Shown here piece after piece: positions 56,723-60,805 of a stretch of 64,000 nt of DNA; positions within the stretch are counted from its first letter, which is position 1, and the number at the start of each line of letters is the position of its first letter. The notes beneath the pieces are model-generated. The model saw nothing but the letters and a program-made list of their open reading frames with translations. It did not search any database and was not told the DNA's origin. The DNA comes from Mayamaea pseudoterrestris. Its lineage: Eukaryota. The stretch lies in assembly GCA_027923505.1 (NCBI GenBank), contig BROI01000020.1, positions 186,001 through 250,000 on the forward strand, written 5' to 3'. The position numbers and the translations under genes were made by a program.

Positions 56723-57841
56723 GGTGGTGGAGGAAGTGTGAATCAGTGTGTGGTTTTGAAGCAAGGATTGTGATGAGATGTTGCTTTTGATCTCGGCCAA
56801 ATTTTCGATGACTGATTGCTTGCTTGTTATTGATTGATAGCAAACTCTAGGAGCATTTTCTACTAAATAGATGGTACTCAATTGCACGATAAGACACTCT
56901 TGGGCGCTCGATGAGTTGAATTGGATCGTGCATACTCCAGTTTTTGACATTGGGCAATACAAAGCAAATCTAGTCCAGCTGCCCGAGATTGGCCTGAGCA
57001 ACATTGGGACAGCGCGAGCCGACGCATTGAGCGATGCACGATCGTCATCCTGACGATAGAAACCCATGCTATGGCATGTAGTATAATAGTAAAGCAGTCT
57101 GAATATTTCTGGCAGCATAATGTTGCTGTTGTTGCATTCATGGTCTCTGACTTATCAGATAGCGCTAAAAAAGTCAGCTGAGCAACTGCGCGTCGCATGT
57201 CGCATTATAGCGTATCTCATCCTCCGTCCTACAATAAACGGCAAACTCCATCCATCGTATACAAAATTGTAAAACCTCCACAAGTTCGTTCCAGAACCAC
57301 CATGATTACGCTGTAAAAGTATGCGCGGCTCACGAAGACGTTCGTTCCGAAACTACTTGCAGGCGCATGAGGCGGACTTTCGTGACCTTTTGGTGTTAGA
57401 CAATAAAGACGCGCCCATCCAATGAGGAGGGTGCGTCGGACTTTACTTCCTACGCGGAAAAGATGCACGCGATGAAATTGTGGCGTCGGGACGACTCTAT
57501 CGACGTACCATTTTGGTGCAACTGTTGCCGCTTCCCCCCTTTTTTAATTTTAGCGCAAGGATTACACAATCACACACTGCTACCACGCGGCAGACCAAGG
57601 ATGGTGCTGCCGGTTCCAGTAAAGACCGGAATCTCCCATGTGACCTTATTAACTAACTACGACAGTCGTGAACGGCGATGAGTTGGCCTATCGGTATATA
57701 TGATTGAGCTCTTCCACCAATGCATTAAAGAAACATTAACGAAAACTTGAGCAATCTTTGAGCTGCCTGCGTTGTCCTTTTTTTGGCCGTGCTTTGCTCG
57801 TCGACTAAATAATGTGCAGCGCGTGGCATCTACTTGATGCC

Positions 57842-58285
57842 TCAATCTCCCTCCATTTTCCGTTTCGACGCTGCCAAGAGCTGCTCCTGCGCATCAGCCA
57901 GCTCTTGCGAAAACTCTTGCTTGCGCCTACGTTTATGAGCCCGTGCTTCAGGTTGTCGCTTTTGCGGTTGGATTCGCTGCACAATTTCATTCGCCTCGGC
58001 TGCCAGCGATCCAAACCCCATGTTTTCCAAAGCAGCAACGACATGTTGACTCGATACTTGTTTCATCTTTTCCGACGAACTGGGATTAATGGTCGCGAGT
58101 TCATTGGACAAGACTCGCAGAAACTCTTCCAAGCATGGAACCAAGGATGACACGGCCGAGTCTGTCAATGCTGGTGTTGCTTGCGAAGTTGTTGTGGTGC
58201 TGCTGTCGCCACCGCCAAAGTGTGCAGCTATTGCCGTCTCCAGTACTCGTCGGCGTCTTGTTACTGCAGTCGTTGACGAAGGCAT
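57842..58285 (-). CDS. Histone-fold protein, NC2-beta/Dr1-like
   Basis: 'CLEEFLRVLSNE...VSSQHVVAALENMGF' and C-terminal 'ELADAQEQLLAASK', which resembles the Dr1 'EEL..QQELF..AR' motif. Confidence 0.72.
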   Translation of the reverse strand: MPSSTTAVTRRRRVLETAIAAHFGGGDSSTTTTSQATPALTDSAVSSLVPCLEEFLRVLSNELATINPSSSEKMKQVSSQHVVAALENMGFGSLAAEANEIVQRIQPQKRQPEARAHKRRRKQEFSQELADAQEQLLAASKRKMEGD

Positions 58286-58971
58286 GCTTGGAGATATGGG
58301 TAGTATACAATATATGCTGGGTGAGATAGATGATCACGAGAATGAGTGCTGTTTATGGAGATGAAGGGCGGAAGTGGACGACGCCGGTGGTGTCGTCTTA
58401 GCGGTACTGATAACTCGCGTGCGACGTAGGTAGTCGTACGACTACGCAGTCGTGTGTCTACGACGCACTCCGCTTTGGCCCATCCTGACACAGTAAATAT
58501 CATACCTGTTGCTTAGCTTTCTGAGTTTTGTTATTCTCTTTCTGCAAAAGTCAGCTAGTGTGATGCCTACTTCCTACCTATATCTGGAGGCAGAGCAGCA
58601 CTTGGGTGCAAGCCCTACCAGGCTGCATAATTGCTTCTCGTGTGGGGCTGTGGCAATTATTTGCTAATGTCCATGACTAACATCAATAATTGCTATACAT
58701 ATCTTGTTACTAACTACAAATTGCTGTATGAAACATATGGGTAGGTGGATATTGCGGAGCTTGTGATGAAAGCCCTGCCGTTGCGCTGACCGTAAGCAAG
58801 GCCCCACATGGTACAGCCAGGCAACCTAAGTAGTATAATACACAATACATCTGACTTTGAGACCAGTATGACTATAAAAAGCTGTCAGGATACGAATTAA
58901 AGGTTGCGAAAGAAAATTTCGGATCGAGAAGTTGGTTGTTCGCCGCCAAAATTTGACCCTAAACCAGGGGT

Positions 58972-58977
58972 TATATA
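58972..58977 (+). promoter_or_regulatory. Putative upstream TATA box for the permuted tRNA transcript
   Basis: TATATA lies about 25-30 nt upstream of the predicted leader (59001) of the permuted tRNA. Confidence 0.45.
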
Positions 58978-59018
58978 GCACTATGGCCTCATCAATGTCA
59001 CGCGAGTGAACAGTCGAT

Positions 59019-59132
59019 ATCAGGAGATTCCGGGTTCGAATCCCGGGCAGGTTTGTGACAAACTCCTACAGGTCTGATGGGTAAAACCATCGGAACGACC
59101 TGTTGGCCCAATGGTAAGGCGCCTGACTACGG
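59019..59132 (+). tRNA. Circularly permuted tRNA-Arg(ACG): 3' half 59019-59054, 5' half 59097-59132, junction at position 37/38
   Basis: 5' half: GACCTGT TG GCCC AATGGTA AGGC G CCTGA CT ACG G. 3' half: A TCAGG AGATT CCGGG TTCGAAT CCCGG GCAGGTT. Joined, they give a full cloverleaf (acceptor GACCTGT/GCAGGTT, anticodon stem CCTGA/TCAGG, T-arm CCGGG/CCCGG). Confidence 0.85.
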
Positions 59133-59139
59133 ATCTCGC

Positions 59140-59145
59140 TTTTTT
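59140..59145 (+). terminator. RNA polymerase III oligo-T terminator (T6)
   Basis: TTTTTT begins 8 nt after the end of the tRNA 5' half. Confidence 0.65.
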
Positions 59146-60805
59146 GCCGTCGATGTAACAAATTCCCCGGTTTTTGACCTTTGACACACTTTTAAATGTT
59201 GTATTCACATATTCGTTACTGCTTCTACCATCAACATTTGCAAATCACATTAGTTTACGCACACATGGCTGTAGCCTGGAGGGTGTGTGGGTCCAAGTTT
59301 CCTGACTAGCTACTGGTCTCACTTTTGCTGATGATTGCATCAACCTTTCTTGACAACCATTCTTTTTAGTTTGCACCTTGAGTAGTTTGCATATTCTGTG
59401 TGGTTATATCACATGCACCGAGTGGGGAGGTGGTAGGATCAACATTTTTTATAGGAAGCAGTGGCATTCGTGTGCATTGTGCACGTACGCGCAACGCTCT
59501 CACGCAAACACTACTGTTGTAGCTTTAAAAGTAAGCATACTACTGAGTACTTAATTCATCACAACTTGCCAACAACTGCTTTGGACAAGGTAGTAAATGG
59601 CACAGAGAGGCAGAGAGATACATTTAATGGACATTGTGCAGTCGGAGTGAAGAGGATGTCATGTCGCATTGGCAGAGCCTCAATCTACCACAATTATTGT
59701 ATCTTGTACATCAGATCATGTTGTGCACCACATCATCTGCTTCTGGAGCCTGTCTTGGTGCTGCATTTACTGCTGCAGCTCTAATTCCTCTCATTGCGTG
59801 TAACACTTGTCAATCAATGGAACATTTGTGAATGCCACTTGAGAAATGACAAGGGTTTACTTTAGATTCCTTCTTGTCCCTTTTGTTTTGGAGCCCTTTT
59901 GTTGCTCTACTACCACCTGTGTGCCCACCATTAGATCTTGTGCTGCAATAAAGGCTGCGCACAGGCATTGTGCAAGTTTCTCAGTGTTATTCTTTCCTGC
60001 GGTCATTCTGGCACTATCATATGTATCAACAGCATGTGCCATGCCGTTAACTCTGCCATGTCTTTCCTCAAGGTGCACTGTGCATGTTTTTGCTGTTTGC
60101 TTTGCTGTTGTAGCTGTGGCTGGTGTCTACAGCCACATAACATGAAAGCAGCAATCACATGGCCTGCATGGACTGTAAACACTGATCTATCATATGCAAT
60201 TGCAATCACCATGTGTATAATATAGTTGTTGTCAGCATTGAAGCTTGGAGGATTTCATCATTTATACCCAAGTAATAGAAATCCTCTGCAAAAAAAGCCG
60301 GGCAACTTGTTGTCACTGGAACTCCAGCCAATTTGGCAACACAAAGAGTGGATGCCACAGAGTGTGTTTGAATAATCAATGCCAAAAGCTCTCAAGGACA
60401 CTGTAAGATTAAGGGGCAGGAAATATTTCTTCATCTACCATTGTTGCCACTGGAGTGTCGAGTTGGCAGCCATTGCAAAGGAAGTGACTCTTCTGCTGAG
60501 GGACTCTTTAAATACAACAGCTATAACTGCCTTAGTCGTGCACTGCTCTTAATGAGCAAACCTCTATGTCTAGGAAAGATAAATATTCCTCTACCCCATG
60601 TACTGGTACTGTACCTTTCCAAGACTCAATCTGTCTCATCGGTATAAGGACGTCACAAACCCTCTGCCAGGGATATTTTTTGCTATGTTGGTTCCGTTTT
60701 GAGAACTTAGCAGACCCACAACAACCAACCTCGCTGGCTACAATATTGTCAGTTCTTCTGCAAGTTTTGTTAATTCGATTTCAATCATCCTATTGCTACC
60801 TACTA

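Follow-up and report, generated by a model that had tools for sequence, protein, structure and literature searches.

A probable circularly permuted tRNA-Arg(ACG) gene in nuclear DNA of the diatom Mayamaea pseudoterrestris

Can a tRNA gene whose 3' half stands before its 5' half be a working gene in the nucleus of a diatom? The question is raised by positions 58972-59145 of a 64,000-nucleotide stretch from Mayamaea pseudoterrestris (assembly GCA_027923505.1, contig BROI01000020.1, positions 186,001 to 250,000 of the forward strand; this whole stretch is called the window below), for which a first-pass annotation had proposed a circularly permuted tRNA-Arg(ACG) gene. With a probability of roughly four in five, we take the locus to be a functional, circularly permuted nuclear diatom tRNA-Arg(ACG) gene of type II (junction 37/38), a reading made from sequence comparison. 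Its function is strongly supported by homologous permuted loci that were found in metagenomes. The elements of the locus, whose coordinates from the TATATA box to the T6 run agreed with the sequence as first annotated, are the following.

58972-58977, forward strand: TATATA box, putative upstream RNA polymerase III (Pol III) promoter element, 42-47 nt 5' of the 3' half
58997-59018, forward strand: leader, 5' limit inferred, the final part reading GCGAG and then TGAACAGTCGAT
59002-59006, forward strand: GCGAG in the leader, outer-helix partner of the trailer CTCGC (sequence read)
59019-59054, forward strand: 3' half of tRNA-Arg(ACG), nt 38-73 (ARAGORN on the joined halves)
59055-59096, forward strand: spacer of 42 nt between the halves
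59097-59132, forward strand: 5' half of tRNA-Arg(ACG), nt 1-37 (ARAGORN on the joined halves)
59133-59139, forward strand: trailer ATCTCGC, with CTCGC at 59135-59139
59140-59145, forward strand: T6 run, likely Pol III terminator

The order of the halves, 3' before 5' with the break at 37/38, was read in the sequence itself and was supported by ARAGORN once the two pieces had been joined. Joining by script from the coordinates (59097-59132 followed by 59019-59054) resulted in a 72-nt tRNA-Arg(acg) with all four arms, which is the complete cloverleaf that had been expected from the concatenation. Its stems comprise 7 bp (acceptor), 3 bp (D), 5 bp (anticodon) and 5 bp (T), and its anticodon loop reads CUACGGA. 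The 5' half contributes the acceptor 5' strand, U8, the D arm (G18 G19 U20 A21), the anticodon-stem 5' strand and C32 U33 A34 C35 G36 G37, the 3' half the anticodon-stem 3' strand, the variable loop, the T arm, the acceptor 3' strand and the discriminator T. The consensus positions U8, A14, A15:U48, G18G19, A21, U33, G53-T54-T55-C56 and A58 are all present, and most of these elements are listed for eukaryotic tRNAs, permuted as well as ordinary, in section 4 of Soma 2014 (PMC3978253). The locus has the make-up of a type II permuted gene, with a 3' half upstream of a 5' half on the same strand and a join that gives a full cloverleaf with consensus elements. Position 20 of the D loop, by standard numbering of the 5' half, is U. 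Diatom nuclear tRNA-Arg is described as carrying C20 or U20 in place of the usual A20 (Igloi 2022, PMC8975779), and supplement 1 of that paper gives U20 for Nitzschia, Phaeodactylum and Pseudo-nitzschia; the joined tRNA conforms to this diatom pattern. In the native DNA of the 64-kb window ARAGORN found no tRNA and Rfam gave no match at gathering thresholds, and no further copy of either half was found there by blastn-short.

Metagenome contigs were scanned for a pattern consisting of a T loop, a gap of 50-80 bases, a D loop and an anticodon loop ending in ACGG. The scan returned 74 loci, 61 of which were conventional tandems of tRNA-Ser(gct) and tRNA-Arg(acg) according to ARAGORN; among the remaining 13, the same program called Arg only in 8, Ser only in 3 and no conventional tRNA in 2. 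The latter two, L006 and L064, are permuted units built like that of the window and come from another organism. Their 3' halves are identical to that of the window (36/36), and their 5' halves match it at 35/36 positions, the sole change turning the pair G10-C25 into G10.U25. No change is found in the anticodon stem or at any of the seven positions of its loop, U33 and A34-C35-G36 among them. Outside the halves the identity falls to 31-35% in the spacer, 36-41% in the leader, 38-44% upstream and 23-25% in the trailer and downstream sequence, so that 71/72 conserved tRNA positions stand against 23-44% elsewhere, with conservation edges exactly at nt 38, 73, 1 and 37. Because conservation ends exactly at the tRNA boundaries, we attribute it to selection on a tRNA, the two halves being kept as one gene, and not to the decay of debris. 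Together with the leader-trailer pairing described below, these 71/72 kept positions in two lineages lend support to the functional reading of the first-pass annotation. Both units also served as positive controls for a permuted-gene search in which sequence was duplicated and scanned with ARAGORN for a junction at 37/38; both were recovered, and over the whole window the search gave 4 hits, all of them overlapping segments of the 59019-59132 locus, with no second locus.

The spacers, otherwise diverged, share an 11-mer at 59060-59070 (AAACTCCTACA), which is exact in the window and in L064 and has one change in L006. This sharing despite divergence argues for common descent of the window and metagenome units from a permuted ancestor. 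The L006 and L064 contigs overlap end to end (80/81 positions) and their units are 94% identical over 197 nt; a single genome probably carries both units, at a distance of about 540 nt and with a decayed fragment of the unit in the interval. That fragment, on the reverse strand of L064 at 211-228 and about 175 nt upstream of the intact unit, consists of the leader end and the first 16 nt of the 3' half; it matches at 17/18 positions, is followed by unrelated sequence and illustrates what becomes of an unselected copy. No coding sequence was found in the open reading frame (ORF) lists of L006 or L064. In prokaryotic genome contigs and in viral contigs the permuted-unit pattern gave 0 and 0 matches, as expected there.

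In the canonical register of a bulge-helix-bulge (BHB) motif, a 3-nt bulge carrying the 3' cut adjoins a 4-bp helix of nt 32-35 with leader positions -3 to -6, followed by a second 3-nt bulge with the 5' cut and by an outer helix starting at +2:-7. This textbook geometry served as the yardstick for leader and trailer. In the window, three of the four central pairs are formed (C32-G59016, A34-T59014 and C35-G59013), with a mismatch of U33 and C. The bulges consist of A59017 and T59018 with A38, at the 3' cut site 59018|59019, and of G36 and G37 with A59133, at the 5' cut site 59132|59133. The outer part comprises T59134-A59012, a 5-nt leader loop and the helix of CTCGC (59135-59139) with GCGAG (59002-59006). 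Every pair named in the first-pass annotation (C32 with G59016, A34-C35 with T59014-G59013, CTCGC with GCGAG) was found to be present. Leader and trailer can form a BHB/hBH-type motif, in the window a relaxed one, with cuts at 37|+1 and -1|38.

Chance formation of these features was estimated from 200,000 shuffles of leader and trailer. For the window, the 32:-3 pair together with at least three of four central pairs occurred in 4.6% of shuffles, an outer helix of at least five Watson-Crick pairs in 2.8%, and both jointly in 0.1% (0.001). In L006 and L064 C32-G, U33-A and A34-U are paired with a mismatch of C35 and C, and 7 Watson-Crick pairs start exactly at +2:-7; their motif is in the canonical register with two 3-nt bulges and has a joint shuffle frequency of 0.00006. 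The outer helices of the two lineages use other letters and even other leader positions. The predicted leader-trailer pairing is kept between the lineages while the sequence is not. The pair at 32:-3 is found in all three units, and this anticodon-intron pair is the one exploited by the yeast endonuclease (Soma 2014, PMC3978253).

The signals expected for transcription flank the unit as a whole. An A/T-rich box about 38-50 nt upstream of the 3' half is present in all three units, the boxes of L006 and L064 aligning with TATATA, and in all three a run of T5-T6 follows the trailer. The window thus has a TATA-like box upstream and a T-stretch downstream, and its spacer contains neither a promoter nor a terminator, having no A/T-rich box and no T run of 4 or more. 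Such an arrangement fits descriptions of permuted genes elsewhere, in which TATA-like boxes lie within 50 bp upstream and the internal promoter is unsuited because its B and A boxes stand in reversed order (Soma 2014, PMC3978253). For the tRNA genes of P. tricornutum an AT-rich region at -30 to -40 is described (PMC3531208).

Public sequencing runs allowed us to compare strains. Logan contigs of five runs from two studies, classed as "DNA?" or of unknown kind, were compared over 57400-60600, joints and loose ends being judged among the matches listed. Runs X1 and X2 each contained a 203-nt contig over 58946-59148, and in run X3 a contig of 601 nt spanned 58795-59389; the order in each agrees with that of the window. 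Against the window, the 203-nt contig of X1 has 7 substitutions and 2 indels, every one of them in 58978-58996, a hypervariable 19-nt patch directly after the TATA box that also sets the contigs of X2 and X3 apart. From 58997 to 59148, which covers the whole predicted transcript, the X1 contig is identical to the window at 152/152 positions, and contigs from both studies share this identity. Two contigs over 58642-58975 showed 14 and 22 differences in about 335 nt (4-7%); at a divergence of about 5%, some 7-8 differences would be expected in 152 nt, where 0 were observed. Across both halves the 203-nt contig is unbranched in X1 as well as X2; 31-mers of the halves therefore occur at no second locus of these read sets. 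No back-joint from 59132 to 59019 and no loose end at the half boundaries was seen among the matches listed for these DNA contigs. The run contigs speak against identical conventional copies, with the proviso that contigs show presence, not absence.

The first-pass annotation had assumed a diatom-like nuclear host, and the neighbourhood of the locus bears this out. For an ORF nearby that encodes a TRAPP subunit, every named best match is a diatom (Epithemia with 77%, Cylindrotheca with 75% and Phaeodactylum with 71% identity, further Nitzschia, Pseudo-nitzschia, Cyclotella, Thalassiosira and others); we therefore consider the window to be diatom nuclear DNA, and judging from these relatives the host is probably a raphid pennate diatom. 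In five large ORFs of the window, 109/149 Arg codons are CGT, CGC or CGA. The splicing machinery presumed below exists in diatoms: P. tricornutum has introns in the tRNA genes of eight amino-acid families (PMC3531208), and homologues of Trl1-type tRNA ligase occur in diatoms (PMC4090602). Conversion of A34 to inosine is ascribed to heterodimeric ADAT (PMC8007984).

If the locus is a gene, its RNA must probably be cut, circularised and re-opened to work. The whole pathway proposed here is drawn from the sequence and by analogy with the algal one (Soma 2014, PMC3978253). Pol III would start about 25-30 nt downstream of TATATA, near 58997-59002, and stop at the T6 run; the linear transcript of about 145 nt would consist of leader, 3' half, 42-nt spacer, 5' half and trailer. 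The halves would fold as a tRNA body whose acceptor stem is closed by the spacer and whose anticodon loop is open, and beside this open loop leader and trailer would pair as the relaxed BHB, including C32-G(-3), a pair on which eukaryotic splicing endonucleases rely. The tRNA splicing endonuclease would then cut at 59018|59019 and 59132|59133, and tRNA ligase would join G37 to A38 to give a circle. RNase P and tRNase Z would excise the spacer, CCA would be added and A34 deaminated to inosine. The product would decode CGU, CGC and CGA.

Several observations weigh against this reading. The joined tRNA has the acceptor-stem wobbles G1.U72 and U7.G66 and the discriminator U73. G.U pairs at 1:72 and 7:66 and a U at 73 are unusual for tRNA-Arg. 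The U discriminator had been raised as a caveat from the start, and a T is indeed present at nt 73; all three features are the same in the window and in the L006/L064 lineage. The splice motif of the window is relaxed, with U33 opposite C and a loop of five leader bases ahead of the 5-bp helix, and its features taken singly are each found in 3-5% of shuffles. A T4 run at the spacer end of L006 could stop some transcripts early. The comparison comprises two lineages only, the second known from L006 and L064, contigs in which no coding sequence was found. In X1 the summed contig depth over 59005-59111 is 129, against about 235 on both sides; in X2 it is 33 there and 44-57 beside. A second haplotype may be unrepresented at 59005-59111, or it may be without the unit.

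Folding of the naked precursor belongs with these points in part. With the cloverleaf enforced and the rest left to fold freely, the leader-trailer helix formed in all three precursors. The enforced fold, however, lay above the energy minimum by 3.4 kcal/mol for the window, 9.5 kcal/mol for L006 and 10.4 kcal/mol for L064, and thermodynamic folding of the naked precursor favoured non-cloverleaf pairings. RNAalifold predicted the anticodon stem, the T arm, the D arm and the leader-trailer helix, and it placed a hairpin in the spacer. It gave no acceptor stem; both acceptor strands were paired with the spacer instead, GGTTT and the base that follows it with the conserved motif and the 5' strand with the 3' part. 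The predicted acceptor-stem probability was at most 0.02 in all three units. Shuffling the spacer gave an equally low value in 59, 43 and 24 of 300 cases, so that the depression is not significant, and the idea of a spacer designed to block the acceptor stem is suggestive only.

Structures that hide the acceptor strands could also be read as those of a conserved RNA that resembles a tRNA and does not decode, either a mimic or a source of tRNA halves, with a topology like that of the tRNA-like domain of YrlA. Among Rfam families below threshold, YrlA (RF02553) matches the native DNA best, with 19.2 bits and E = 0.17 over the T arm, the acceptor and the D arm in this permuted order, and the conserved 11-mer and the hairpin of the spacer count in favour of such an RNA as well. 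The score, on the other hand, is far below the gathering score of 69 and the family is bacterial. Moreover, the whole anticodon stem and the seven loop positions are unchanged and a splice-type motif sits exactly at 37/38, neither of which an open-ended mimic would need, and a tRNA-Arg(ICG) is needed for the Arg codons counted above. We regard such an RNA as unlikely.

A functional permuted gene must further be set against non-functional debris, a pseudogene left by rearranged or broken tRNA-Arg genes while the real tRNA-Arg(ACG) genes lie elsewhere. The decayed fragment of L064 (reverse strand, 211-228, 17/18) demonstrates that duplications can leave debris. Decay would hardly spare halves that are 71/72 identical beside sequence at 23-44%, with edges exactly at nt 38, 73, 1 and 37, nor would it keep a leader-trailer pairing in different letters, a promoter box and terminator in all three units, and 152 nt of predicted transcript without a difference among strains that diverge by 4-7% in the flanks. 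In the first-pass annotation, debris of two adjacent broken genes had been named as the outcome that would overturn the permuted reading. It found no support in the unbranched contig over both halves, nor in the absence of a 59132-to-59019 joint among the matches listed. Debris is in our view very unlikely.

Alternatively, the locus could be a split gene whose halves are transcribed apart and joined in trans without a circle, or RNase P and tRNase Z could cut first and the two pieces be spliced afterwards. The order of processing is unreadable from DNA, and the T4 run of L006 would fit an early stop between the halves. Against this, the spacer of L064 has no T4 run and that of the window, as described, has neither an A/T-rich box nor a T run of 4 or more; a distance of just 42-51 nt separates the halves, which share a strand (spacers of 42 nt in the window and 50/51 nt in L006/L064), and a circle was detected in the described algal cases (Soma 2014, PMC3978253). 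These variants we consider highly improbable. Finally, an assembly or chimera artefact was ruled out, since the runs of two studies (X1, X2 and X3) cover 58946-59148 in the same order and two further permuted units stand in independent metagenome contigs.

The spacer deserves separate description. Its 11-mer is complementary to tRNA nt 41-45 (AGGAG; within 59022-59029) and also to GGTTT with the first spacer base (59050-59055), and the last pair of the latter helix is G-C in the window and C-G in L006 and L064, a compensatory exchange. The 11-mer may act as a processing signal or in an alternative fold. A hairpin GATGG/CCATC is formed by 59076-59080 and 59087-59091; a hairpin also occupies the corresponding site in L006 and L064, the two paralogues differing there by a T-A pair exchanged for G-C. 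ACAGGTC at 59068-59074 is the perfect complement of the 5' acceptor strand at 59097-59103, while in the spacers of L006 and L064 GGTCG(A) pairs with the start of the 5' half. We considered whether the real 3' acceptor strand could be ACAGGTC, with an intron of 21 nt at 65/66 in front of it. This was rejected because L006 and L064 are without that complementarity, while GCAGGTT beside the T stem is identical in all three units.

Beyond the permuted tRNA-Arg(ACG) gene as such, a wider proposal may be made, which we hold tentatively and with considerable doubt. It states jointly that the permuted unit is the sole tRNA-Arg(ACG) gene of a group of raphid diatoms, that the trait is old in diatoms and came possibly from an algal endosymbiont, and that the spacer, with a motif pairing nt 41-48 and 69-74 and with the 5' acceptor strand masked, acts as a timer that denies RNase P and tRNase Z access to the acceptor stem before splicing and circularisation are complete. 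If the unit were the sole gene, about three quarters of the Arg codons of these diatoms would be decoded by way of a circular-RNA pathway invisible to standard annotation. The supplements of PMC13578239 and PMC8975779 contained no list of nuclear diatom tRNA genes by anticodon.

Some features of the surroundings were noted in passing. Positions 59326-59539 are very deep in X1, with bins up to 1093 and single contigs of about 3800 against about 120-240 nearby, and loose ends occur at 59470; this is probably a dispersed repeat. A single contig in X1 and another in X2 lack 315 bases in the stretch 59898-60214, a presence/absence difference from the window. Among the bacterial tandems of tRNA-Ser(gct) and tRNA-Arg(acg) recovered in the metagenome scan, L001 and L042 retain no more of the Arg gene than its 5' part, beyond which the sequence is unrelated, and may have been cut short at a site of insertion.

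A conserved permuted tRNA gene in the nucleus of a diatom would extend the phenomenon to the stramenopiles, and it is relevant to the question whether permutation has several origins or is spread together with endosymbiont genes. Tools of the tRNAscan type and Rfam miss the gene, and diatom annotations may lack the decoder of the most used Arg codons. Some diatoms are transformable, which opens the pathway through a circular intermediate, and the function of the spacer, to genetics.

How does the locus compare with known systems? Table 1 of Soma 2014 (PMC3978253) lists 34 permuted genes, 11 in C. merolae, 19 in Ostreococcus and Micromonas, 2 in the nucleomorph of B. natans and 2 in T. pendens; no Arg(ACG) and no stramenopile is among its entries. 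A 2025 preprint adds permuted tRNA genes of Auxenochlorella (PMC12633428), and in a 2026 review on photosynthetic eukaryotes the lineages named are the same, P. tricornutum appearing only with its 52 nuclear tRNA genes. No report of a permuted tRNA gene in a diatom or stramenopile was found in the searchable literature, and in the searchable text of stramenopile papers "permuted tRNA" occurred only in the reference list of PMC4267664.

The tRNA-like domain of YrlA, the sole Rfam model touching the native sequence, has the same order of T arm, closed acceptor helix and D arm. Unlike the window, the family has no anticodon arm, and at 19.2 bits the locus is not a member; the match is a topological echo. 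The permuted tRNA-iMet and tRNA-Tyr of Thermofilum pendens share the principle of permutation and BHB-dependent joining, but differ in their junction at 59/60, spacers of 1-7 nt, an encoded CCA and an archaeal endonuclease (PMC3978253). The green-algal cases, in Ostreococcus, Micromonas, the green-derived Bigelowiella nucleomorph and Auxenochlorella, are almost all of type II with spacers of 5-64 bp (PMC3978253, PMC12633428), some with an ambiguous AT-rich upstream region, and include one Arg tRNA, Arg(TCT) of O. tauri (PMC3978253). Unlike these, the window belongs to a host of another supergroup and its anticodon is ACG.

A close likeness in layout is that to C. merolae (Soma 2014, PMC3978253). 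There too the halves stand on one strand in the order 3' before 5', with the junction at 37/38, the intervening sequence has a reported length of 1-74 bp, within which that of the window falls, leader and trailer form a BHB-type motif, a TATA-like box stands within 50 bp upstream and a T-stretch downstream, and CCA is not encoded. Unlike C. merolae, the host is a diatom and not a red alga, Arg(ACG) is absent from the table of 34 genes, the BHB of the window is relaxed and the spacers share a conserved 11-mer and a hairpin. With the intron-containing tRNA genes of P. tricornutum it shares cuts at 37/38, presumably the same enzymes and an AT-rich upstream region (PMC3531208). In contrast to these diatom intron tRNAs, the pieces flanking the cuts would be transcript ends and not an internal intron, and ligation would therefore circularise the RNA rather than remove an intron. 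In summary, the comparison describes a known phenomenon in a new major lineage and a new isoacceptor, with a gene that is real and conserved and, very probably, also functional.

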